A stretch of 64,000 nt of DNA. Origin: Mytilus edulis. Taxonomy: Eukaryota. The notes beneath the pieces are model-generated. The model did not search any database. It worked only from the letters and a program-made list of their open reading frames with translations, and was not told where the DNA came from. This document shows, one piece after another, positions 4,700 to 48,249 of the stretch. The position numbers were made by a program, and so were the translations under genes. Location of the stretch: the NCBI RefSeq assembly GCF_963676685.1, contig NC_092353.1:20435307-20499306 (forward strand). The letters run 5' to 3'. The first letter of the stretch is position 1; every line of letters starts with the position of its first letter.

Positions 4700-5090
4700 G
4701 ATTTTTATAGTTCGTTCTTATGTTGTACTGTTATACCACTGTCCCAGGTTAGGGGAGGGTTGGGATCCCGCTAACATGTTTAACCCTGCCACATTATTTA
4801 TGTATGTGCCTGTCCCAAGTCAGGAGCCTGTAATTCAGTGGTTGTCGTTTGTTTATGTGTTACTTATTCGTTTTTCGTTCGTTTGTTTTTACATAAATAA
4901 GGCCGTTAGTTTTCTCGTTTGAATTGTTTTACATTGTCTTATCGGGGCCTTTTATAGCTAACTATGCGGTATGGGCTTTGCTCATTGTTGAAGGCCGTAC
5001 GGTGACCTATAGTTGTTAATGTCTGTGTCATTTTGGTCTTTTGTTGATAGTTGTCTCATTGGCAATCATACCACATCTTAGCTCTTAGAC
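4700..5090 (+). repeat. SINE-like interspersed repeat, copy 1 (~350 bp; 3' end ...gttgtctcattggcaatcataccacatct)
   Basis: Homologous copies at 25885-26215, 43690-44050, 54940-55160 (partial) and 62040-62420 (reverse complement); contains an A-box-like gcctgtaattcagtggttg. Confidence 0.7.
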
Positions 5091-6469
5091 CCGAACCAGC
5101 TGAAAAATAATTAAAATTGAAACAAAAGTTATAAGGAAACGACAGTACATTGAAATTAGTATTATTAAAGCTAAAAAGCTAATAAATGCACCTTTATTTC
5201 TATATCATTCATATATTCAATTTGTATATCTTTAATTTCTTAAATCTATTTTTTTTCTTTTATTATTAACATTCTAAATTCTTTTTATATTATTATAGTT
5301 CTTTAATGTATCAATATGGTTACTACTCGCTGTCGTTTTTCTTCAGGTGCAATAATTTAGTAAAAATAAGTACATGATATCAAACATGTTGTTTTAAAAA
5401 TGAGTTATTAAATTTATTATTTTAGATAGCTGACTGGAGACCATTTAATTTAATGTGAGACCTCTAAATCAATGTTGGAGTTTATAACCTAGAATACTAA
5501 AACATTTTTTCATAATTTATTTTTTCATAATTTTCTAAGTTAACACTTGAAGCATTTTTAAAATAGTCATACTTTTGATCTGAGTTAACTATTTGAAACA
5601 TCATTCCAGTCAGCTAAGAGGTATTTTTGAAAAGTTAATTCTGTTTTGTCTTTATGTTTGTGTATGTGTTGCTTTGTTTGAATGTAATATATTGTACCTT
5701 GCTTTGTGGAGAGGGCTTACATAGGCTATGCTTGTTGCCCAATCCAATTCAATTTATTTGAATAAAATATTGTTTAAACTGAAATACCACATCTTCTCTT
5801 TTATATTTACCTGTTTATTGCTTTTGAATAATGAACATTTTTATTTACAAAGTCGTTGTCTTCAAAATCAAACGATAATGACTTTTATTAATAATAGAGG
5901 ACAGAACTTGAGAACAATCTATTAATATGTAACAATGTTTCACATGGACTTTACAGAGGTATCTTGTTTTAGAGATCTTTCCAGCTCTGCTGTCAATGTA
6001 AAGTTAACATTTTTCTTTTGTCATGTAATTTTTCGCATGATAACATAGCCTAAATTATGTAGGACCAGAAGAACAAAATTTCTGATCTTTAATGTTAAAT
6101 TTCTGAAGCAAGTTCTAAAATCATATTGATTTTTCTTTCGAGGATTTTTCTTTTAATAATAAGGGAATATAAAAGGAGAAACATAATATGCATTGAAATC
6201 ATCTTTCCATATTTTGTTTCAAATAAATAACTAATGGGTCGTTTTTAAAATCCATCCATAGTTTAGATAGAAATTGAGGAAATATTTTCATCAGTTAAAC
6301 TAAATTTTTAATATTCTACTGAACTCACAGTAGTTTATATGAACAAAATCTACAAGTAATTAAAAACCAATTGTTCAGAGAACAATTGAAGGTCTTTCCA
6401 CCAGTTAATATCTATTTTGATATTAAAATATTAAAATCAGTCTAAAATGTCAGTTCATATGGCTTTATG

Positions 6470-6900
6470 ATGTATAGATATGAATTTAAAGCAAAGGTCA
6501 ATATCTAGAACGTCAAATTAACCTATGACCTTGACCTCAATTTGAAGGTCACAAACTGAGGATATCAAATCAAAAGACCCTAGGTCTCTAATACGTATGG
6601 TTAATAAGTTATATCACTTTACACATAATTTTAGATATGATAGGGGCAAAAACTCCCATTCATTGTCTATGCACCCTTTCAACTAAAATTATTAAGTTAC
6701 GACATGTCGCAACTAACAATTTAGTCAAAATAATGCTGATATCTTATACGGTTTCTGGAAATGAGTGGAAATAAGCCTAATTCAAAAATTAGAATATGAC
6801 CTTGACCTTTGACCTTGACCTAATTATTATTTTTTTTGGACCAAGGACCTCAAATCAAAAGATCCTAGGTCTCTATCACTTATGGTTTTCCAGTTTAAAA
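6470..6900. repeat. Two copies of a ~150-bp unit carrying TGACCT direct-repeat arrays (atgaccttgacctttgaccttgacct; aaatcaaaagaYcctaggtctcta)
   Basis: 6480-6620 and 6780-6900 share both blocks. Confidence 0.5.
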
Positions 6901-11439: not shown

Positions 11440-11830
11440 TTACATTTCGTACCTGTTGTAGATATGAAAAAAATATGGCAGACAAACAGTGGTCCTCAGA
11501 TGATAACTTGGAGGAAATATTGATACGGAATCAACTATCCAACAGGCTGATGTCACTGTAAACCCTGATACGAAATCAACTATCCAACAGGCTAATGTCA
11601 CTGTAAACCCTGACACGAAATCAACTATCCAACAGGCTAATGTCACTGTAAAGCCTGATACGAAATCAACTATCCAACAGGCTAATGTCACTGTAAAGCC
11701 TGATACGAAATCAACTATCCAACAGGCTAATGTCACTGTAACGCCTGGTACGAAATCAACTATCCAACAGGCTAATGTCACTGTAAACCCTGATACGGAA
11801 TCAACTATCCAACAGCTGATGTCACTGTAA
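11440..11830. repeat. 48-bp tandem repeat, ~8 copies (acgaaatcaactatccaacaggctaatgtcactgtaaaccctgat)
   Basis: Direct reading; the - strand ORF 11440-11781 is just the periodic translation VDFVSGFTVTLACWI x6. Confidence 0.9.
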
Positions 11831-14800
11831 ACCCTGATACGGAATCAACTATGTCACTGAAAGTTATAGAAAAGACGAGAAAAGGTCGTCCCGTAAATGT
11901 AATGGAGATACCTAAGAGATTTACAGCTAAACAGACAGTATCTGCTGCTAAGAAGAAAGATTTACTGAATCTTTGTAAAACTGGTGTTATTCCGAGAGAG
12001 TACAACAGCCTCTACAAAGGATTACAATCTGACAACAAAACACCAAATATACTCCCATATCCGGATTTTGAGGAGGATTAAATTGACTCCGAAAAAGAAG
12101 AATAATGATTAAGGCTGGAAACTGCATCAGTTGTCTTCAAAACAAATACAATCTAACAATCTTGGTTTATCAGTTATATTAATACAACTTAAGAGAATAT
12201 TAGGAAGAAGAACACTTGCGACATTTATAACATTAACTGATATAGTGAATTATGCATTTCATTTTCCATTCACGTAACCTTAGGAAACTCAATGATTGTT
12301 GCTGTGTTATATTTTGTTGTAATCAAGTACATGGAATTATTGTAGTCTAATTGCCACTTATGTCGAATTAAGGAAACATAAGAAAGTTTTCAAAAAGGAA
12401 TATTCTAAAGGGAAAGTTTAAATAAGCCTTTATTCCTCCATTATTATTTCAATTTTGAAATTACTATATTTTGTTTTATTAACAACATCCAATCTTTTTC
12501 TATTAGAACTTTTGTCTTTTCTTCTTTAAGATTCAGTGAAAATGACTTCACACAATACATACATTTATAAATTCAATTTCTTTATGTGTATATAATTTCA
12601 TCATGTGTTTTAGAAAAGAATAGTATTTATTATAAAAATAAAAAGGATCCATTGCCATAAATTCTTTTAAATTAAATGTAACCTTTTAAAACAAAAACAA
12701 AAAAATAATTGGAAAATAATTCGTCAAAAAAAATGATTTTGTTCACTGAATAATTATATATTCTTTTTAATTCACTTTCCGTGGTTACTTTGTGTATAGT
12801 TTTCCCTGTAATTACATCATCTTATATATTATTTACTTTAACTTAACAATGTTTAATTATTTTGAATTTGTTCACAGTATATAATTCAAAACAAATAAAA
12901 AATAATAAGTTATATTAATTCGTTTTTCAAATTCAACAATCTCTTATCGTTTGCAAATGCAATGATGCTTACAAAACAACATTTAGAATATGATATACCA
13001 CACAGGTTTAAATTTGTGACACAAACATCTGTATTACTTTTTAATCATACTTATCCGTTAAACGTTTCAAGTGCAATTATATCTTTTATCTGACAACCAA
13101 TTAGCATCAAATTATAAAAGGATAGTAACTATGTCTATTTTTGCAATCTATGTTAATTTGATACATTTCTGTAGTAAAATAGAATTTACATTTACAGTCA
13201 AACTTTGTATGTCGGTTTCTGAAAAGTCACAACTTTCTAGATACGAGATTGTTGCATTAACCCATCGATTTAATTTGTATTATCCCTTAAAAGACATGTT
13301 TTATGGATTTTTTAAATAGTTTTGATAGTTACTTATTCAAAAATATTATTAGTGGCAGAACGAGATAACATTTAGATAGATGACAATCTTGCTTAATAAG
13401 TGCTTTATAATATTCTTTACTTACATTCTCCGTTTATAAATTCATAAATTATAAAAACATTCAAATGGATCTCCTCTTACATCCTTTCTTGGTCCCATAA
13501 CTGTTGAATAACTAATTACAAAACACATAAATTAGTAGAGTATAAAATGTTTTAACCAACTGCCCCTACATTTGTTTCACTCACAGGGTTTACATATAAT
13601 TGACATGTTGTACGTTAATTGAATAGAAAAGTGTCTATCTTTTTTTCTACCGTTGGTAAGCGCTAGATTTTATTGCTGCAGGCATTTTGATATCAAATTG
13701 GAATGTGTTCCTGATTTCATGTGTCAGCTGCTTTTCATTCCTGATAACGAGATGTGCTGATAACACGGTCAATTAGATCATTTCACATTTAAGTAATAGG
13801 TTTTGCTTTTGCTTTTAAATACTTGACAAAATTGATCTGACATCCTTCTTTAAATGAAGATTTTTAAAAGTACATGCTTTTTTAACTATGCAATGAAGAT
13901 TTAATGTATCTGCTAACAGGGGTTCAAAATGTATTATGTATTTTTAGTTTCAATGCAAATCGTTATTTCTACATTGAACAACTAAATGTTTTGACCGCTA
14001 CATGTTTATATAAAAGAGCTTATATACTACTTCTATCCCATTAATTCATGCTGTTACTCATAGATAGATTTTGCTATCCTTGATAGGTCCTCATTGGTAC
14101 AAAATAATGCTACAATTTAGTCTGATAGAACAACATTAGATTAAATACAACTTAATATGCAAATAATGCAAATTCTAAGGCAGTTACTATCCCGTAACTC
14201 CCTTGTTATAAGCAGAAACATGAAGCAAACGGAACTTAAAAGAATCTGCAGTTTATAACTCTTGTTTCGTAGCTATATTTTAATAGGTTTTCGGTAACAA
14301 TAATAATTGTGGCAAGTGACAACGAATTCTTAAATAAAAAGAGTATCTACAGTCATCATCATCAATATGATATTTAAAAAAAAACCCATATCTGTATGTT
14401 ATTTCATCTTCACAATGTTTACTGTTGGTATGGAAGGTCTAACAGCATCACTGTCTCGTTATGGTCGTTAATATAACTATGACGCTAAAATGAAATTCAT
14501 ATTGTCGAGATCGAGTCTCTTAAATACAACATGAACACGTTAACAAAAGATGCATTATAATTTATTTGTGTAGGAAAAAAGGATTGGTAATTGTATTGTT
14601 CTTTGCAGGAGATATAACAGCTGCCACATTAATAATTACATTGTTTCAATACACCACATTGGGCTCCATATTTTTATTGATACCAATATTATTTTATGAA
14701 CCTTTTTGAATATTTTTAAATAATTCAAATTCACCTTGAAACATGTATGCATGATTAAGCAACATGCATATTGAATGATATGCGACAGAAAAGCTAATGA

Positions 14801-23829: not shown

Positions 23830-23832
23830 CAT
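23830..23832. repeat. Candidate 3-bp target-site duplication CAT, left side (repeated at 30444-30446)
   Basis: CAT directly abuts both terminal inverted repeats if they are taken as TAAGCCYCAG...; if the inverted repeat is taken to start at GCC instead, the flanks are TAA (left) and TTA (right), which are not identical. Confidence 0.4.
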
Positions 23833-23860
23833 TAAGCCCCAGTCACACTGTCACGTTTCG
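23833..23860 (+). repeat. Harbinger left terminal inverted repeat (28 bp)
   Basis: See element entry. Confidence 0.75.
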
Positions 23861-24300
23861 GCTATCCCGTTTTGCTACGTTTTCAAAACGTAGCGAAACG
23901 GCAAAATCCGTAGTGAATCGTATCGATCCGTAGTTAAAACGGCTATATACGTAGTTATGCGTAGATTGATACGTGATCGGTGCCGTTTGTATTGGTCTGC
24001 ACAATACAAACGTGACTAAAAATGAAAACGTAGTACTAACGTAGAAAAGCGCAGTAAAACGTAGAAGGAACGTAGAAATGCGTATTAGAAACGTACCTGA
24101 TACGTTCTAAAACGTATTTGATTATAATCACTAGGTGTTATTACGTTTAAGTACGTATCTGCCACGTTGCATTAGGTTTTTGTACGGTATATTACGCTTC
24201 ATGGTACGCATTAATAGGTTTCATCACGTTATTCTAGGCATTATTACGTATCGATGCGTATTACTACGCATGATTACCTTCTTCTACGCATAATCAAACC
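23861..24300. promoter_or_regulatory. Left subterminal array of short ACGTA/CGTAG/TACGT motifs (more than 25 CGTA-core copies in ~440 bp); presumed binding sites for the element's Myb/MADF-like protein and 5' region of the transposase gene
   Basis: Direct reading (aaacgtagcgaaacgg..ccgtagtgaatcgtatcgatccgtagttaaaacgg..tacgtagttatgcgtag... etc.); mirrored by an equivalent array at 30050-30415. Confidence 0.6.
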
Positions 24301-24356
24301 ACGTGTATCTATATTTCTCGCCATTTGCTAAAATAGTTTGTCAGTCTTACAGCAAG

Positions 24357-25645
24357 ATGGACAGACAACGGATGGAAATGAAAAATTATGGATTATTGAT
24401 ACACAATCATATTTTGAAATTGAGAATGTTGTTAAACAGACACAGACATAAACGAATAGATCACAGAGTGCGCACGGTATGGGTAAGGGATTGGATAGGT
24501 AGAAGATCTCAGTTTGGTTTTTATGCACAGCTGTTGGATGAATTGAGATGTGAAGACACCGTTTCTTTCAAAAACTTTTTGAGAGTTGATCCAACCATGT
24601 TTCAGGAAATTGTTAATAGATTAACACCAAGGCTACAAAAGAAAGACACGTGGTACCGAAAGGCATTGCCAGTTGGTCTTAAAGTAGCAATAACCCTTCG
24701 ATATCTAGCCACAGGAGACAGTTATCATTCACTTATGTATTTATTTAGAGTGCCGCACAACACGATATCCAATCGTGTAGTACAAGTTTGTGAAGCAATT
24801 ATTTCCGAGTATGCTGAAGATGTTATCAACACACCTACGGAAGAAGCTGGATGGCTAGCCATTTCGCAAGAATTTAGTGATATGTGGCAGTTTCATCATG
24901 TGCTAGGTGCACTAGATGAGAAACACGTTGCTATCAAATGTCCGGCTGGTGGTGGTTCTAAATACTATAATATAAAGGATTCCATTCTATAGTTCTAATG
25001 GGCTTAGTAGACGCTAATTATAAATTTAAATGGGTTAACTTTGGCGCACCAGGTGCTTGCTCTGATGCACAAATTTGGAATCAGTCAGACTTAAAAAATC
25101 ATATAATTGATGAGAATATGCACATACCAAAAGCAGAGCCTCTTCCGAATGATGACAAAGACATTCCGTACTTCATCGTTGGTGACGACGCGTTCGCCCT
25201 CAGAAGTTGGCTAATGAAGCCCTTTTCTAGGAGGAACATGACCCTTGAAGAGAGAGTTTTTAACTACAGGCTATCGCGATCACGAAGAGTTGTTGAAAAC
25301 GCATTTGGGATACTTGCAAATCGATTTCAATGCTTACTTTCAACTTTAAAGCAAGAGCCTAACAATGTCGTATCCATTATTCTGGCCTGTGTTTGTCTGC
25401 ACAATATAATGAGGATAAGATATCCAGGTGATCAGAACATTTTGTTAGACAGAGAAGACGAGAACCACCATCTTTTACCTGGAGCTTGGCGAGACGAAAC
25501 AAACCTGAAGGACATTGATGATGTGAAAGATCGCAACTATCCTAGCAGGCAGCAAAACAACAAAGACTGTATCTTAAACACTATTATTCGTCACCTGCAG
25601 GAAAAGTTCCATGGCAAGAACGAATGGTTCAATAACGTTTTTTAA
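24357..25645 (+). pseudogene. HARBI1/PIF-like DDE transposase (DDE_Tnp_4), ~430 codons, split by a frameshift near 24966-24980 (ORF1 GTG-start 24303-24992, ORF2 24998-25645; the homologous reading actually resumes in the second frame at ~24971 with YKGFHSIVLMGLVDANYKF)
   Basis: LPVGLKVAITLRYLATGDSYHSLMYLFRVPHNTIS (HTH region) and HVLGALDEKHVAIKCP...YYN(R/I)KGFHSIVLMGLVDANYKF..FGAPGACSDAQIWNQS...IVGDDAFALRSWLMKPF (catalytic D...D...GD region) match the Harbinger transposase architecture. The tataatataaagg stretch at 24966-24980 looks like a 1-bp indel. Confidence 0.8.
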
Positions 25646-25884
25646 CTGTCTTATCGTAGTATATTTGAATGATAAGTATATGATTTGTACTTTTGTTTAT
25701 TTAACTTTGAATGTATCAAAAAATATTATCATGATACATGTAATTAAACTTTAAGAAATTCTTCTATTAATACCAGTTTTCTGGTCTTTTAAAAACAATG
25801 GCACGCATGGGTCAGCATACTTAGGATAAATTGAAAATTTCATTATTATAACACTAAAACAACAAGACAAATCAAAATAAAAAA

Positions 25885-26215
25885 AAAACTTTGGGATCCC
25901 GCTAACATATTTAACCCCGCCGCATCATGTATGCATGTGCCTGTCCCAAGTCATAAGCCTGTAACTCAGTGGTTGTCGTTTGTTGCTGTGTTACATATTG
26001 TTTTTCGTTCATTTATTTGTACATTAATAAGGCCGTTAGTTTTTTTTTCGTTCGAATTGTTTTACATTTGTCATTTCGGGTCCTCTTATAGCTGACTATG
26101 CGGTATGGACTTTGCTCAATGTTGAAGGCCATACGATGACCCATAGTTGTTAATTTCTGTGTCATTTGGTCTCTTGTGTAGAGTTGTCTCATTGGCAATT
26201 ACACCACATCTTCTT
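25885..26215 (+). repeat. SINE-like interspersed repeat copy nested inside the Harbinger, between the two genes
   Basis: Aligns over >300 bp with 4735-5085 (gggatcccgctaacat.tttaaccc.gcc...cctgtcccaagtca.aagcctgtaa.tcagtggttgtcgtttgtt...gttgtctcattggcaat.acaccacatct). Confidence 0.7.
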
Positions 26216-26382
26216 TTTTTATATTAACCAACAAAATAATCACTCAAACAAAAAAACTTTTAATTTTACAGACAACTGTCATAATACATGAAATAAACAA
26301 ACTGTCTACATAATAGAGTCGTCTTTTAATGTCATTCATATAAAACTTTAAAACACCTGTACGGTTCCTGGTATGAATAAGT

Positions 26383-26676
26383 TTATAATGAGAAAAGTGA
26401 CGATGAGGGTGAATCAACGTTCATTGAATCCGATTGCATTATTACACTGGCAATACTTGATGTTGTAATATCTTGTGCGCATGTAACAGGTGGAGCAGAA
26501 TGTGCTCTTATAGGTTCAATGTCTGCTTGAGTTTTAGACCGGTTTTGCAGAAAGGCGACGTCCTGTCCAGGTAGCTGATATTGCTGCTGCCATGCAGGTA
26601 GGTACCCAACATTACTTGATTGATTACAGAAGCTGCCCATGGGAACATCCAATGCAGATTGTTGACCAGTGAATCC
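26383..26676 (-). CDS. Probable terminal exon of the Harbinger Myb/MADF-like gene (…GFTGQQSALDVPMGSFCNQSSNVGYLPAWQQQYQLPGQDVAFLQNRSKTQADIEPIRAHSAPPV…SL*), followed by an ATTAAA signal ~50 nt downstream
   Basis: Strong acceptor tttttgttgttgcag|GGATTCACTGG near 26677; open to the stop at 26383; attaaaag on the - strand near 26330. Confidence 0.4.
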   Translation of the reverse strand, partial: GFTGQQSALDVPMGSFCNQSSNVGYLPAWQQQYQLPGQDVAFLQNRSKTQADIEPIRAHSAPPVTCAQDITTSSIASVIMQSDSMNVDSPSSSLFSL

Positions 26677-26879
26677 CTGCAACAACAAAAAACATGACCA
26701 TATAAACAAGTTTGATCAACTGTGTATCATCGGCGTTGGAATTAGGTACTAGAACTGGGGTTATGCGGGGTTTCAAGGAAGGATAATTAACATAACTGTA
26801 CGGGGTACTGTTGCCTTGTTCGGTAATGCCGATTTCTTAAAGATAAATAAATCCCAGTTCCTAAGTCAAGGATACACAG

Positions 26880-27060
26880 CAGTGGCGGATTCAGAGGGGG
26901 GGGGGTCATAGAGGGCGTACGCCCCCTTTATTTGTACTTTTTCTCCCCTTTTTACGTGATTTTAGCCAAAAAAAAAACAATTTCGCCTCGCTCCGCTCGC
27001 CAAGAAAATATGGTATACGCCCCTTTCTAAATTCCTGGATCCAATTCTGTAACCATATCG
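26880..27060. repeat. G-run MITE-like fragment (cagtggcggattcagaggggggggg...) related to 7546-7693, sitting in an intron of the MADF-like gene
   Basis: The terminus cagtggcggat(t/c)cagaggggg is shared with the rc of 7675-7693. Confidence 0.45.
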
Positions 27061-27282
27061 TTTTAATATACGTAGTATATATAAATATATATATATATAT
27101 GACCGGACGCATGACAATTTCAAAATGCAGCAATTACCTGAGAGTAATTACAACACGAGGCATCCAAAATATGCAGGTGAACTAAAGAAATGTGTATTTC
27201 GAAACATGTTCTGACCTTTCAGTCTTAACACAATACTAGTACTAGTAAATAATATGTGAATAATATACCTGCAGTTGCTGAA

Positions 27283-27362
27283 GACGTTGTTTATCACGGC
27301 TGCGTAGCTCCTTACTTTCATTTTGAAATCTATCCAATAGATCCATACTCTCTCTTTTAAAC
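27283..27362 (-). CDS. Candidate internal exon (…FKRESMDLLDRFQNESKELRSRDKQRLQQLQ) between acceptor tttttgctttcag| and donor CAG|gtatat
   Basis: Splice-signal reading on the - strand; frame assignment uncertain. Confidence 0.3.
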
Positions 27363-28154
27363 CTGAAAGCAAAAATTTGATATGAATTCATTTAAAAAGT
27401 GAGAATCAATATCATATTAATGTAAACTATAGCTATAATGGATTATTTTTGATACATCTCATTCTTTTGAGAAAGTGTGAGGAAAATAATTGAAAACGAA
27501 TCATACTGAAGTTTGATAAACACCAATCTTTACATATAATACTTTTGCAAAGTTTCATGAAAATCTCTCAATAACTTCAAAGTTTCATTTCAAAACGGCT
27601 TAACTTAAAAACGAAGTTTTCGATATATCTTAACATTAAACTTGTAAAAGCTCTCTGTTTAGTACTCAACAATTGAGCAAAGTGTCAATAAAAATTATGG
27701 ATTCGTTCTTAAATGACTACTTGGTAACAGTCGATGACGGACGGACAGATGGACAAGCGGACGAAAGAGCAGACAGACAGGCAATACGCAGACGAACGGA
27801 CACGCAACCAAACGTTTTTTACGAAAGGTATTACACAATGCCTTGCGACTTCGTGTGGCGGGGTATAAAAACTAATGTCATTACCATAGCGTATCATCGG
27901 ACACAGGATGTTGGTACCAGGCTTAAACGATTTGTATGGTGTTCAATTTTAAAACTGCTACAGTACATCAAAAAGTTGTTGCACTGCACCGTGGAGTTAT
28001 GTTTTTCCTCCTAAAAAATCAGAATAGACCCTCTGCTCGATGATACACGATTTTTATATAGCGTATTCGGCCGTGTATAGTACACATTCATCAAGTAACA
28101 AAACATTAACATACAAAAGCATAGCATACCTCCCCCACAATCTGTCGTCAATAC

Positions 28155-28390
28155 CTGGAAGAATGCTGACCATCCAATGTCCCCAGTTCTGCCTTTCGGG
28201 TGTCATGTCCGCGTGACTAGCCAGCTTAGCCTGCACTTGTTTCTGTAATTCAGAAGACTGTTTTATTGCTTCCTGGATGTCTTTTTCAACTGGAGATTGC
28301 ATCTTCTGGTATTTCTTTTTTGTTTTTGTTGTAACTATAGGAGAGGGAATATCTATTGTGCTGGACGTCTCCTCAAGATTACATTGCGAT
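28155..28390 (-). CDS. Candidate exon 4 of the MADF-like gene (SQCNLEETSSTIDIPSPIVTTKTKKKYQKMQSPVEKDIQEAIKQSSELQKQVQAKLASHADMTPERQNWGHWMVSILP), acceptor ttttttttctttag|, donor CCAG|gtattg
   Basis: Open frame between canonical splice signals; joins in frame with the acidic frame of the 100-nt exon 3 (..GAAAGAAG|A TCG CAA..). Confidence 0.45.
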
Positions 28391-28691
28391 CTAAAGAAAA
28401 AAAAACCGATGAAAGTTGTATTTTTTGTTCTAAACAATACAAGAAGACACCCTATCTCTACTACTACGGTGGGTTTTGAACGACCTTGACTGGCTTGACA
28501 CCCTATCTCATAACAAGAAAACAAGAAATGCCGGAAGCACAATCAATCCGATACAATTACTTTTAACTGAAAAGTATTTACAAATGTAAGTGTGATGGAC
28601 GGACGGACGGACCAAAACATTATAATAAGTCCTGATGTGAAGATATAGGTTCAATTTAACTAATTATACAAAGAAGTAAATGGTTACTGAC

Positions 28692-28791
28692 CTTCTTTCA
28701 TCGTCTTCTTTACTTTCCCCTTCGTCCTCATGTTCACTGGGAGAATCGACGCAAGCATCTGTTCCGTATTTGCCTTGAGTTTCCCTTTCAG
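28692..28791 (-). CDS. Candidate 100-nt exon 3 (acidic frame ERETQGKYGTDACVDSPSEHEDEGESKEDDER), acceptor atatttcag|CTGAAAGG, donor GAAAGAAG|gtcagt
   Basis: Consensus splice signals at both ends; acidic linkers of this kind are typical downstream of MADF domains. Confidence 0.45.
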
Positions 28792-29020
28792 CTGAAATAT
28801 TCAGACATAATCGGAACATTATTTATGTATTCGTACAAGATATATCGAGATAAAGTCAAACATTTGAAATGAAACAGCTGTAAAATGAATTTCGTAGAAT
28901 CAGAACATTAAGTATCATTTAGAAAAAGAAAAAAGGTACGGGAATTCAACAAAGGAAATAACAATAAAAGGTAAAAAAAGTGAACTGAAATATTAAGTAA
29001 TAGAAAACTGTATTGCACAC

Positions 29021-29277
29021 GTTTATTCCTCCTCTGGTTTCTATTCTGGCAATATGTGGACCCAAGAAGCCAAATTTTTCTTTGATCCATTTGTCTCTTT
29101 GAGTATCATCTTTTCTGCCTGAACCAGATTTATTGCCTTCTCGTGTCAGTCTTCCGAGCTGAGATCTCATTGACTCAACCCATGTCCTGAGAGTCTTCCA
29201 ATCCTCTACCCCTAGCTCATTAGCTTTTGCTTGCCATCGTGTATTTTTGAGAGCAGTATCTTTGTACTGATAATGAG
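29021..29277 (-). CDS. Exon 2 of the MADF-like gene, encoding the body of the MADF domain (AHYQYKDTALKNTRWQAKANELGVEDWKTLRTWVESMRSQLGRLTREGNKSGSGRKDDTQRDKWIKEKFGFLGPHI...)
   Basis: Acceptor ttttttttcttctctttcag|CTCATTATCAG at ~29278; W...W...LR..W......G......K...W..F.FL is the MADF signature; the 3' donor is uncertain (AAC|gtgtgc near 29020, or earlier). Confidence 0.65.
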
Positions 29278-29425
29278 CTGAAAGAGAAGAAAAAAATCGG
29301 TCACATTGATTTTTAAATATAAAGACCATGCTGTAAGTTTATCTATGTCTACTGGTGGGGTTAACATCTTTTGACATTTCTTCTCCGTATTAATATTTTA
29401 AATTATAGCAAATAAATACATGTAC

Positions 29426-29651
29426 CTTTGTTGTATAGAGGTTCGTTTTCTCTATACCAATCTGCCAACTCATCCTGCTTTTCTTGTGGTATTTCTAATG
29501 GCTTGCTTCTTTTGCGCTTCTCTTTATTGGTATTAGCTGGCTGTTCAGTATCACTATTTTGTGTTTGCTCATTTGTTTCTTGTGTATTAGTTGTTTCAGT
29601 CTCAGGCGCCACACTAACTATGCGGCCCCTTCCTCTGCCTCTGGTCCTCAT
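29426..29651 (-). CDS. Exon 1 of the MADF-like gene (MRTRGRGRGR...KEKRKRSKPLEIPQEKQDELADWYRENEPLYNK), donor AAAG|gtacat; the basic and RG-rich N-terminus looks like a nuclear localisation signal
   Basis: ATG at 29651; DELADWYRENEPLYNK is the start of the MADF domain, which continues in frame into exon 2 (phase 1, G|CT = Ala). Confidence 0.65.
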
Positions 29652-30049
29652 CAGAACGGTCTGGTTTGAAACACACTAAAAGATAAAATCAAATACCGGT
29701 AAGAGGAAAATTGGATTTAAAACGGACAATGTGCAACGTAGAATATTTCAAAAGAGCAATTATTATAAAAGGGAAAGCATTGACAATGTTCTAACCAAAG
29801 CTTTAAATGTTTTTTCATGTTTCATGTATCCACTCAACAAAAATCTTATCTGAAAGAAAAAAACAATAAAATCTTTCTTTTGAGTACTAAATTTTTAGAC
29901 CATAAAATGGGAACAAAATAATTTAATTACAATGACAGATGTATTAGTAATTATAAAGTGTACCTCTATTAATGTCTCCAGATTTGTTTTAGTTACTCTG
30001 CTCCCTCTTTACATCTCTGTCCTTTCTAAATTTTATTGAATAATGATGC

Positions 30050-30415
30050 CGTTTCACGATAAGTGATCACAGCGTAGTGACACGTGATACTGCGCGCAAT
30101 AAACTTGCTAAATCGTAGGAAATCGTGCAAAAGCGTACTTGAACCGATTTAGAAACGTACTAAACCCTAGTAATACGTAGTGAAACGTAGTAAACCGTAG
30201 TAAAACGTAGTTTATACGTACTGAAGCGTATTAAAACCTAGTAGAACGTACCCCTTGTAGTTATAAAAAAACCTAGCAAATCGTAACAAAACGAAACAAT
30301 ACGTAGAAGAACGTATCAAAACGTGGCGTAAACCTAGTTAAACGTACGGACCGTTAAAAATGACAAAAAAATGCCATGAAACGTAGCATTTCTACACGTA
30401 CTAAAACCTAGCTGT
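30050..30415. promoter_or_regulatory. Right subterminal ACGTA/CGTAG motif array of the Harbinger, upstream of the MADF-like gene
   Basis: aatcgtaggaaatcgtg..agcgtacttg..aaacgtactaaaccctagtaatacgtagtgaaacgtagtaaaccgtagtaaaacgtagtttatacgtactgaagcgtatt... etc. Confidence 0.6.
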
Positions 30416-30443
30416 CGAAACGTGACAGTGTGACTGAGGCTTA
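30416..30443 (-). repeat. Harbinger right terminal inverted repeat
   Basis: Reverse complement = TAAGCCTCAGTCACACTGTCACGTTTCG. Confidence 0.75.
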
Positions 30444-30454
30444 CATAAAAGTAT

Positions 30455-31730
30455 CGTATATATGTAACCCCCCAAACGTGTCTGATTCCCCCAAACGTGT
30501 CCACATCGACGTCACTGAACTGCAAAGACATGTCTAGTTGTCAAAGGGCGCTAAAGCGTGTCATTTGTATAAACGCTCAAACGTGTCCATTTTTTAATTA
30601 ACCCCCAGTCGTGTCCAATCCCCCAAACGTGTCCATACCAAGCTTTTTTTTTATTTTACTGGAACTATCATTCGTGTTCATATTATAAAAACGTAGGTTA
30701 TTTGTGTGTGGTTTTTTTTATTTTTGTCATTGTATACTCATTTTACGATCTTTTACTATTTCATTAAAAGATCAAAATAAATTACTTAAATTCTTTTTCT
30801 ATGCCCATTAAAATGTTTGTAGCATTTAACTCGTTATAATGTGCCATACTTTGTATTTTGGAAGGCAAATTTTTTTTTAATTTCTGCAACTTTTATTTGA
30901 AACAGCCTCTATATTACATAACAGACATTGAAGTAGTTTCTTACTGAAATCATAAACAAATCGGTCTTTACTCGCATTTATTTTTCTTTAGATTAAAATC
31001 CAAACTAGTGGTCATCCCAAATAACCGTAAAAGTTAATGCCCAATTTTAAATTCCCGGTTTGATAATATAACCTATTTACAGTATATATCGTTAATATGA
31101 TATCGTTCAAAAAATGAATGAAATATTTGGCACTGGACGTTATGTCTCTTGTTCGTGTGTCTTTAGTGACGCTCGTTACCTATTTATTAAAATTAGAACT
31201 GTTAAAAAAAGATGGGAGGTCAATTCGACTGAAAGCCCACCGTGCAATATTCTGATTAATATAAAAGGCATCATCGGAGTTTATTAGTATAAAAGAATTT
31301 ACATAGTAAACGATTAATTCAACTATACTAGAATTATTTGCATGTTCGCTTTAAATTAGTATGAAATAATGAAGCAAATTAGGTCAAAAGTTAATGCATA
31401 TGTTACATATTAAATTTTCAGTAATGATAATCATTACAAACCGGCATTGAACAAGTTAATGTTAATAAATTACCACTTCATCACCTGTGTCCCCATCATA
31501 GAACTGCCGTGAACGTTATTGATGTCGCATTTAGGACATGTATTTGCGCAAAAGACACGAGACGTTCTGGCGTTTAAAAGTGGACACGTTTGGGCGAATT
31601 ACAATAGTATCGGGCATGTTTGGGGGCCCGGGTTCTGAAATCGGACACGTTTGGGGAATATTGAATATTATGGACACGTTTGGGGGGAAGGACACGTATG
31701 GGAGTGTTACATATATATATATATATATAT
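30455..31730. mobile_element. MITE-like element with inverted subterminal arrays (CCCAAACGTGTCC)n at 30470-30640 and (GGACACGTTTGGG)n at 31545-31700, and TA-rich termini (gttacatatata); it directly abuts the Harbinger right end
   Basis: At least five copies of the 13-mer on each side, in opposite orientation; no coding capacity between them. Confidence 0.5.
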
Positions 31731-47310: not shown

Positions 47311-48249
47311 GCTGGCAAAGAGATTATATTTTAATTTCGTAACCGTTTCTTTTATAAACCTAACTTCACCATGGCTAATATCAACAAATCTTTACTTTAT
47401 AATGTACAATTGGTAAAGTACACGGACAAAAGATCAGTCGAGCTGTATACACAATGATAAGCAACCTCTCAATTTATAGAGTTGTAATCTGGATTAAAAA
47501 AAAATCTTGAGTCGGAATAATTGTCATAGACATTTCCAAGATACGTGTCCATCAATATTAACCAAACATTATTGACCAATTTAGATTACCAATGCTATTC
47601 TTATCAAACTTGAAGTGGAATGCCATTATTGGTTTAGCCTTGTAAATAGAGTGGTAATAAACCATTGGGATTGAGTTTCTTATTTCAGAGGTCATATTAT
47701 CATCCGTTCATAGAAAAGCAAAGGAAAGACTCTTATGAAATGAAAGCTTAAAAAGATCATCATAGATTCAAAGCTTTTAAAAAAATTACTAGAAAGCCTT
47801 TTACCATAATTACGTTGACCAGAAACGAATGTTATTGAAAACATTTACGTTCAAATATAAACGCAGATCAAAATATATAGATAAAACCGAACTCTAACGA
47901 TATTTGCTTTAATGAGACAGATCTTTAAGGCATTGCATTTTTTGGTGGATTACAATCAAATCAGACTAAGACAGAACAAAACAAAACTTTACGAAAAAAG
48001 AGATGATTTCAGCTTCCCATTTGTGAACTTTCTATTTCTATGTAGCAACATTCTAGAAGCGCCTGCATACGGAGTATATATCTCCCAATTTTTACGATAT
48101 TCCCGGGCTAATATTTCCTATTATGATTTCCTTGATAGAGGATTGCTGCTTACAAGGAAGCTATTAAACCAAGAGTTCCAAATGGTGAAGTTGAAATCAT
48201 CCCTTCGTAAATTTTACGGACACCATTACGAGTTGGTTGACCGTTAAGG

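Follow-up and report, generated by a model that had tools for sequence, protein, structure and literature searches.

PIF/Harbinger is, to our knowledge, the only major superfamily of cut-and-paste transposons that needs two proteins, and we know of a single element, Harbinger3_DR of zebrafish, in which the binding sites of the partner protein have been mapped. Here we analyze a window of 64,000 nucleotides from the mussel Mytilus edulis (GCF_963676685.1, contig NC_092353.1, positions 20,435,307 to 20,499,306 of the forward strand; position 1 is the first letter of the window), in which a single 6.6-kb PIF/Harbinger element, at ~23835-30441, carries dense arrays of short CpG-centred sites at both of its ends. 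The Myb-like protein of Harbinger3_DR binds a 9-bp subterminal motif and both binds and recruits the transposase (PMC9710019; PMC2836001), and partners of the MADF type evolve fast (PMC9710019). The mussel element resembles Harbinger3_DR in its two-gene PIF/Harbinger organization, its partner of the Myb/SANT/MADF type, and its short subterminal motif. It departs from Harbinger3_DR in the number of sites, of which each end has ~30-40 and not just a few, in their strict ~10.4-bp phasing, in their arrangement in blocks of one orientation, and in the motif, which is a different one with a CpG at its centre. The basis of knowledge also differs, as the mussel sites are putative ones read from sequence, whereas the Harbinger3_DR sites come from binding work.

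Two further systems invite comparison. In Ac/Ds, whose ends differ from each other, the terminal ~250 bp on either side hold dozens of AAACGG hexamers in both orientations, and the hexamers are bound in a methylation-sensitive manner by the transposase itself. The resemblance to the mussel sites, which are likewise short, A-rich, and CpG containing (AAACGG against AAACGT/AAACGG), is an analogy only: Ac/Ds belongs to the hAT superfamily, produces an 8-bp target duplication, and has its hexamers bound by the transposase and not by a separate protein, and we know of no helical phasing among the Ac hexamers. Ends of the hAT Ac/Ds type were considered for the mussel element and ruled out by its DDE_Tnp_4 transposase and 3-bp target duplication. 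In En/Spm, a member of the CACTA superfamily, whose elements carry complex arrays of subterminal repeats, the protein TnpA, which is separate from the transposase, binds many 12-bp subterminal repeats in direct and inverted orientation, and this binding overlaps the promoter and is autoregulatory. An element-encoded DNA-binding protein distinct from the transposase is the point of likeness, this being the candidate role of the MADF protein in the mussel, while superfamily, protein fold, motif length, and spacing all differ.

Within PIF/Harbinger itself, the Medicago element MtPH-A6-4 carries 60-bp subterminal repeats, each with three AAACNNCTTATT motifs and hence a 20-bp period, which occur in 2-35 copies and have been read as variable number tandem repeats (VNTRs) tied to gap repair (PMC2213677). 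The superfamily and the presence of subterminal tandem repeats are shared with the mussel element; the differences are that MtPH-A6-4 is a plant element, that it is without 10-bp phasing, and that conservation across families is not reported for it. In the searchable literature, these 60-bp VNTRs were all that was returned for phased subterminal sites in PIF/Harbinger elements, and the site density, one-turn phasing, and conserved geometry with motif turnover across phyla that are described below were not found there. The concept as such stays within that of known subterminal binding sites, and what is noteworthy is the unusually regular helical phasing.

Oriented, helically phased sites at both ends

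The original prediction placed dense arrays of CGTA-core motifs at the two ends of a Harbinger element, and both arrays are indeed there. There are 28 occurrences of CGTA/TACG in 23861-24300, a density of 64 per kb, and 22 in 30050-30415, a density of 60 per kb; the remaining window has 3.3 per kb and the element interior 4.4 per kb. The 500-bp bins that hold the arrays contain 19 and 23 such words where the window mean is 2.1. The longer word ACGTAG/CTACGT reaches 15.9 per kb on the left and 13.7 per kb on the right over a background of 0.09 per kb, an enrichment of ~160-fold. When each region itself was shuffled 1000 times with its dinucleotides preserved, the left-end counts were reached by none of the shuffles and the right-end counts by 1-9 of them, so that the density of ACGTA exceeds the shuffled-dinucleotide expectation. 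In an unbiased, discriminative comparison of k-mers between the ends and the remaining window, AAACGTA ranks first (127-fold, p = 6e-19), AACGTA is enriched 69-fold (p = 2.5e-23), and a further word, AAACCTA, is also enriched (56-fold). Over all these measures, enrichment ranges from 20- to 180-fold over background. The window is AT-rich (~31% G+C) and has a CpG observed/expected ratio of 0.83; this ratio is 2.2 and 2.0 in the two arrays and 0.8 outside them.

Two other local maxima in the window are unrelated to Harbinger. A 45-bp minisatellite, ctgatacgaaatcaactatccaacaggctaatgtcactgtaaaccc, present in ~8 copies at ~11500-11880, accounts for the raised TACG count of that bin, and the raised CGTA count at 48000 consists of scattered matches.

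Listing every CpG together with its sequence context gave a site inventory, in which three arrays and two palindromes can be distinguished:

23885..24125, plus strand (inward): left outer array, ~22 AAACGTAG-type sites 10-11 bp apart, CGTAG by strand 9:0
24126..24305, mainly minus strand: left inner array, ~13 sites of the form TACGT/TACGC together with TAGGTTT (AAACCTA) variants
30050..30415, plus strand (terminus-ward): right array, ~28 AAACGTAG-type sites among AAACCTAG variants, A.CGTA by strand 13:0
23865..23903, unstranded: palindrome P1, tcccgttttgctacgtttt C aaaacgtagcgaaacggca, with 17/19 arm positions paired (hairpin scan)
23980..24016, unstranded: palindrome P2, gtgCCGTTTGTATTG gtctgca CAATACAAACGtgac, within the left outer array

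Neighbouring CpGs in these arrays are separated overwhelmingly by steps of 10 or 11 bp, or of 20/30 bp where a site has decayed. In a Fourier analysis of where the CpGs lie, the best period is 10.2 bp on the left and 10.4 bp on the right (p<0.0005), with a power above that of all 2000 random placements. Tandem Repeats Finder (TRF) independently returns a unit of 10 bp, AAACGTAGTA, along with higher-order local repeats with periods of 30, 31, and 41 bp; its calls cover parts of the arrays only (24025-24095, 30152-30251, and 30264-30324, at 68-83% match), the remainder being too degenerate. The irregular spacing that had been described from the letters is thus not borne out, as the sites are phased at ~10.4 bp, mostly in 10/11-bp steps.

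Nor is the mixed orientation a free one, and the palindromic, dimer-binding core that had been proposed is not supported. Orientation is organized in blocks: plus in the left outer array, minus in the left inner array, and plus in the right array. Read from the terminus, the left end presents 2-3 outward sites, ~22 inward sites, and ~13 outward sites, whereas the ~28 sites of the right end are nearly all outward. One motif lies within each terminal inverted repeat (TIR), at 23854 and 30421, and points toward the terminus, so that the arrays effectively begin inside the TIR, and P1 marks the point at which motif orientation switches from minus to plus. The position weight matrix, A-A-A-C-G-T-A-(G/A)-(T/C)-A, describes an asymmetric site of 8-10 bp, AAACGTAGTA, with the CpG at its centre; A occupies position -2 in 65-82% of the sites, although symmetry with the A at +3 would call for T there, and the strand counts inside blocks are 9:0 and 8:0 for CGTAG and 13:0 for A.CGTA. 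Together with the non-palindromic cores of sister families (TCGTA, GGTCG, and ACGAAT, introduced below), this asymmetry and the strand blocks led us to reject a palindromic dimer-binding site. P2 could be a distinct dimer-binding or hairpin element.

The opposed blocks have structural consequences. The left inner array and the right array form an extended imperfect inverted repeat, with arms at 24130-24196 and 30176-30242 that are 72% complementary. Folded as single-stranded DNA, the left end (23835-24310) reaches -83.6 kcal/mol against -55.1 kcal/mol for shuffles (z = -5.9), and the right end folds less strongly (z = -2.1); the strong foldback potential on the left arises because plus and minus motif blocks oppose each other there. 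The left array ends at ~24302-24305, 55 bp ahead of the transposase ATG.

A second site type, AAACCTAG, is free of CpG and 56-fold enriched, and it stands in phase with the AAACGTAG sites at 30160-30410 and 24130-24240. It is not derivable from CpG deamination, because the change is from G to C. It also occurs in the related element L003 (5930-6180).

Constant geometry and changing motifs among relatives

For comparison we used loci that encode transposases of decreasing identity to the window protein:

L007, a Logan contig: transposase 85% identical
L003, a complete element on a TARA metagenome scaffold: transposase 73% identical; palindromes at ~347-391 and ~468-510
L002, a contig of GCA_001005475: transposase 68% identical
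L004, Saccostrea cucullata: transposase 63% identical; palindrome at ~6512-6549
L005, a European Nucleotide Archive assembly with 41% G+C: transposase 62% identical; palindromes at ~6450-6482 and ~6565-6599
L006, the sea cucumber Holothuria leucospilota: transposase 58% identical

Dense CpG-centred subterminal arrays are found in all six. The arrays predicted for the mussel element are thus retained in six related families, and they are also present in another copy (L001, discussed below). Best periods of 10.2-10.7 bp were obtained in 11 arrays from 7 families, each at p<=0.03 against random positions, and the phase coherence of the CpGs extends over 350-540 bp. When neighbour steps of 9-12 bp were pooled over nine arrays, there were 3 steps of 9 bp, 95 of 10 bp, 59 of 11 bp, and 10 of 12 bp, with a mean of 10.46 bp. 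This mean matches the helical repeat of B-DNA and not a fixed 10-bp unit, and because the sites are spaced in this way, 10 or 11 bp apart, they share one face of the helix.

In most families, the arrangement of blocks is conserved alongside the phasing. With the incompletely mapped L006 set aside, the order of TIR, plus block, minus block, and transposase ATG recurs in L002, L003, L005, and L007, and the right block is all plus in L003 and L005, where the right end is available. L004 deviates, in that its P2-like palindrome and its array of mixed orientation are placed at the terminus more distant from the gene for the transposase. Palindromes equivalent to P1 are present in L003 and L005 at equal distance from the terminus, and L002, L003, L005, and L007 each have a palindrome related to P2 at a distance of ~140-200 bp from one end, the one in L004 being at the opposite end. 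The P2-like sequences are themselves related across families (GTTTTGAAC/GTTCAAAAC). Families can be aligned collinearly through the left array, with 69-75% identity, comparable to that of coding sequence; for the stretch 23885-24125 the identity to L002 and L003 in such an alignment is 69-72%. Sequence past the stop codon of L007 is not alignable.

What changes is the motif. The window, L007, L003, and L002 have AAACGTAG in common, while the other families use (A/T)TCGTA (L004), (A/G)GGTCG(G/T) (L005), and ACGAAT (L006), with the CpG central in every case. The outer 14 nt of the TIR are near-invariant, reading AGCCYNRGTCACAC after the TTA of the target duplication, or TGCCCCACTCACAC in the sea cucumber, and the inner TIR carries each family's own motif. 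The junction of TTA with AG is seen at both ends of L004, L005, and L006. L004 is inserted in a ~180-bp satellite (2200-2765 and 6804-6900), whose uninterrupted units read ..aaagTTTTAcatagg.. and represent a natural empty site; the TTA duplication and the exact ends are therefore confirmed by the neighbouring units of this satellite.

These comparisons bear on whether the arrays need any sequence-specific reader. They might be neutral, degenerate minisatellites that arose through slippage or post-excision gap repair, a view to which the TRF units of 10, 30, 31, and 41 bp at 68-83% match lend some support, and variable subterminal tandem repeats are possible in plant PIF/Harbinger elements (PMC2213677). 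Set beside the head-to-tail, highly identical units of a minisatellite, the arrays give a mixed picture, with TRF matches of 68-83% over parts of them, more degenerate sequence elsewhere, and opposed blocks at the left end. Against a neutral origin, a mean of 10.46 bp represents a mixture of 10- and 11-bp steps and no single unit length, the motif is embedded within the TIR, and CpGs are kept at twice expectation despite a CpG-depleted genome. The phasing, and mostly also the blocks and palindromes, persist at 58-73% transposase identity though the unit changes, and we regard a neutral origin as quite improbable.

The changing motif is also informative about a second alternative, in which the arrays are enhancers or promoters made of sites for host factors, driving the expression of both transposon genes, and not transposition signals. 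ACGT cores are typical targets of basic leucine zipper (bZIP) proteins, so that ACGT-core bZIP or PAR-bZIP-like factors would be natural candidates, and by sequence reading the left array stops 55 bp before the transposase ATG with TATATTT and TCAGTC nearby, and AATAAAAT comes after the right array. Sister families, however, replace ACGT with TCGTA, GGTCG, or ACGAAT while the phasing is unchanged, and such covariation with the transposon family is not expected of host factors. The motif is also asymmetric and strand-blocked, and ~400 bp separate the right array from the MADF ATG. We give this explanation slightly less credence still than that of neutral repeats.

Three loci contribute less to the comparison or were put aside. 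L001, a Mytilus galloprovincialis copy, was rejected as evidence for constraint: its array differs at 5/442 positions, a rate equal to that of the remaining element, its right end falls in a gap of Ns, and at 98.8% identity it is too young to be informative. An attempt to place a transcription start from the L007 Logan contig was dropped, as the contig runs right through the array. In L002, CpG-to-TpG/CpA changes are seen in the TIR at 5089-5125, where GTCATGTTTCAGG stands against GTCACGTTTCGG, and the outermost bases of this TIR differ, which is consistent with an older, methylation-decayed copy.

Candidate readers of the arrays

A constant tip beside a family-specific array is the pattern to be expected if two different proteins read each end: the tip would be recognized by the catalytic transposase, which is conserved, and the array by a sequence-specific partner that evolves fast, such as PIF/Harbinger elements possess. 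The original prediction had named the MADF-domain protein encoded inside the element as the candidate for which the arrays serve as a binding platform, and this is the best reading of the data, given that the motif turns over, that the tip stays constant, and that Harbinger3_DR offers a precedent. It is also consistent with the protein sequences, as the region of the third MADF helix, TWVESMRS, is identical between L003 and the window, whose motif is the same, and differs in L004 and L005, which have other motifs.

It can be hypothesized that the arrays are the cis-acting ends of an autonomous-type PIF/Harbinger transposon, that the MADF protein binds the array sites cooperatively, side by side, and that the DDE transposase is then led by this complex to the neighbouring outer TIR, AGCCYNRGTCACAC, located 14-20 bp past the first site. 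The left end would be read as out, in, out, with two palindromes, and the right end as uniformly out; since the orientation of their blocks differs, the two ends are not equivalent. Because each of the convergent genes has an array directly upstream, for which the original prediction had also suggested a promoter role, a feedback of MADF occupancy on the transcription of both is probable, or at least plausible from the sequence. Judged from the sequences, we find it reasonably probable that MADF protomers bind cooperatively on one face of the helix, that the complex positions the transposase on the tip, and that block orientation distinguishes the ends. At these putative sites, MADF binding, cooperativity, transposase recruitment, and autoregulation are all steps that we infer.

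Several observations weigh against this proposal. With 4-5 families behind it, the correspondence between MADF sequence and motif cannot be separated from phylogeny. Divergence is also seen at the N-terminus of the transposase, which could be the array reader. The 30-40 sites per end go far beyond what Harbinger3_DR appears to need. The TRF periods of 30, 31, and 41 bp indicate that part of the array is a recent tandem duplication, so that part of the periodicity could be inherited and not selected, and the only close copy, L001, is the one that is too young to inform on constraint.

The second of these points can be developed into an alternative of its own, in which a helix-turn-helix at the N-terminus of the transposase reads the arrays and the MADF protein serves mainly for nuclear import or chromatin contacts. 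A helix-turn-helix DNA-binding region has been predicted in PIF transposases (PMC9710019), and DUF8040 is among the precomputed Pfam matches at the N-terminus. The N-terminal ~50 residues are the most divergent of the alignment and could track motif turnover, and the existence of two site types, AAACCTAG as well as AAACGTAG, both also in L003, would permit two readers. On the other hand, in the sole case with experiments it is the Myb-like partner that binds subterminally, and the near-invariant outer TIR is the more natural target for a conserved transposase. Such a role of the transposase strikes us as unlikely, though it is the alternative that we take most seriously.

The CpG raises a different question, namely, whether the arrays are mainly targets or sensors of host silencing, through CpG methylation or hairpin-derived small RNAs, and not a platform for recruitment. 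A CpG is central to the motif of every family, the left end folds as single-stranded DNA far more strongly than the right (z = -5.9 against -2.1), and the L002 TIR shows CpG-to-TpG/CpA decay, all of which could be accommodated. The foldback potential, however, arises automatically from opposed motif blocks, and silencing alone leaves both the helical phasing and the link to the TIR unexplained. Of the alternatives considered, this one seems to us the most remote.

Returning to the MADF protein as the array reader, a bolder extension may be speculated upon. The partner might polymerize into a nucleoprotein filament that follows one face of the DNA at each end, throughout a PIF/Harbinger clade that spans bivalves to echinoderms, the fixed geometry combined with changing motifs might prevent cross-mobilization, and the central CpG might make assembly sensitive to methylation or hemimethylation, so that transposition, or self-repression, would depend on the state of replication or silencing. 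A coupling to replication or silencing state has been proposed for Ac. For the mussel and its relatives we regard the extension as tentative and, taken as a whole, rather doubtful.

The mussel elements and their relatives nevertheless form a natural series in which a MADF protein is paired with its presumed site, AAACGTAG, TCGTA, GGTCG, or ACGAAT, while the end geometry is shared and the TIR tip stays constant. The assignment of each part of the end to its reader thereby becomes testable, as do the role of helical phasing and the avoidance of cross-mobilization between families. For annotation, a CpG array phased at 10.4 bp beside AGCCnnnGTCACAC offers a signature for such elements and for their MITEs, the miniature transposable elements with inverted repeats, in invertebrate genomes.

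The host element and its surroundings

PIF/Harbinger elements are expected to show a 3-bp TWA target duplication and short TIRs that begin with A or G (PMC4482050). The assignment to Harbinger that had been made from the letters is upheld, as a transposase of the DDE_Tnp_4 type, a MADF gene convergent with it, TIRs, and a target duplication of TTA characterize this as a PIF/Harbinger element. Its parts, other than the arrays, are as follows:

23832..23834, unstranded: left target-site duplication TTA, joined to AGCCCC
23835..23860, plus strand: left TIR, with a 21-nt exact inverted match to 30416-30436
24357..25645, plus strand: transposase gene (DDE_Tnp_4, Pfam PF13359)
29651-29426 and 29277-~29021, minus strand: exons 1-2 of the MADF (Myb/SANT-like) partner gene, spliced product
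30416..30441, minus strand: right TIR, reverse complement AGCCTCAGTCACACTGTCACGTTTCG
30441..30443, unstranded: right target-site duplication TTA, whose first T overlaps the final TIR base

The exact inverted repeat, CAGTCACACTGTCACGTTTCG, occupies 23840-23860 and 30416-30436, and within the window this TIR is present at these two ends only, with no further copies of the element. Alignment of the termini of 7 elements shows that the outer 14 nt of the left TIR, AGCCCCAGTCACAC, are conserved across families, whereas the inner part, here TGTCACGTTTCG, is variable; in the window it already holds a minus-strand copy of the array motif, AAACGTGAC. The right junction, GGCTTAC, lacks one T that a perfect TIR followed by TTA would have, the last base being shared or ambiguous.

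After frame repair, the transposase matches PF13359 at E = 7.2e-30 and PF04827 at E = 5.6e-11, and it has 3410 homologues, the best of which, at 92-93% identity, is an intact Mytilus galloprovincialis protein (P0001). Alignment against the intact copy L001, which is 98.8% identical and occupies a different genomic site in M. galloprovincialis, locates two 1-bp deletions that break the frame in the window, at ~24971 and ~25547. About a third of the differences between the window and L001 are indels of 1-2 bp, and for this reason the frame-breaking deletions are suspected to be assembly errors; together with the missing T at 30441, they may reflect the assembly and not pseudogenization.

For the MADF gene, the coordinates cover the first two exons only, and these, when spliced, match PF10545 (MADF_DNA_bdg) with 26.0 bits (cut-off 22) and E = 1.2e-5. 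Orthologous MADF exons occur at the same position in L003, L004, L005, and L006. Sequence searches of the PDB returned no solved structure related to the transposase or to the MADF protein. By sequence reading, a TATA-like TATATTT (24310-24316) and an initiator-like TCAGTC (24341-24346) lie just inside the left array, and a TATA-like AATAAAAT (30036-30029, minus strand) follows the right array, which is itself ~400 bp from the MADF ATG.

Adjoining the right end is a separate, non-coding, MITE-like element of ~1.25 kb (30461-31713), with the TIR TGTAAC...GTTACA and TATA flanks. In this element CCCCCAAACGTGTCC occurs five times at 30471-30634 on the plus strand and five times at 31582-31702 on the minus strand, and it thus bears subterminal site arrays of its own, in inverted relative orientation.

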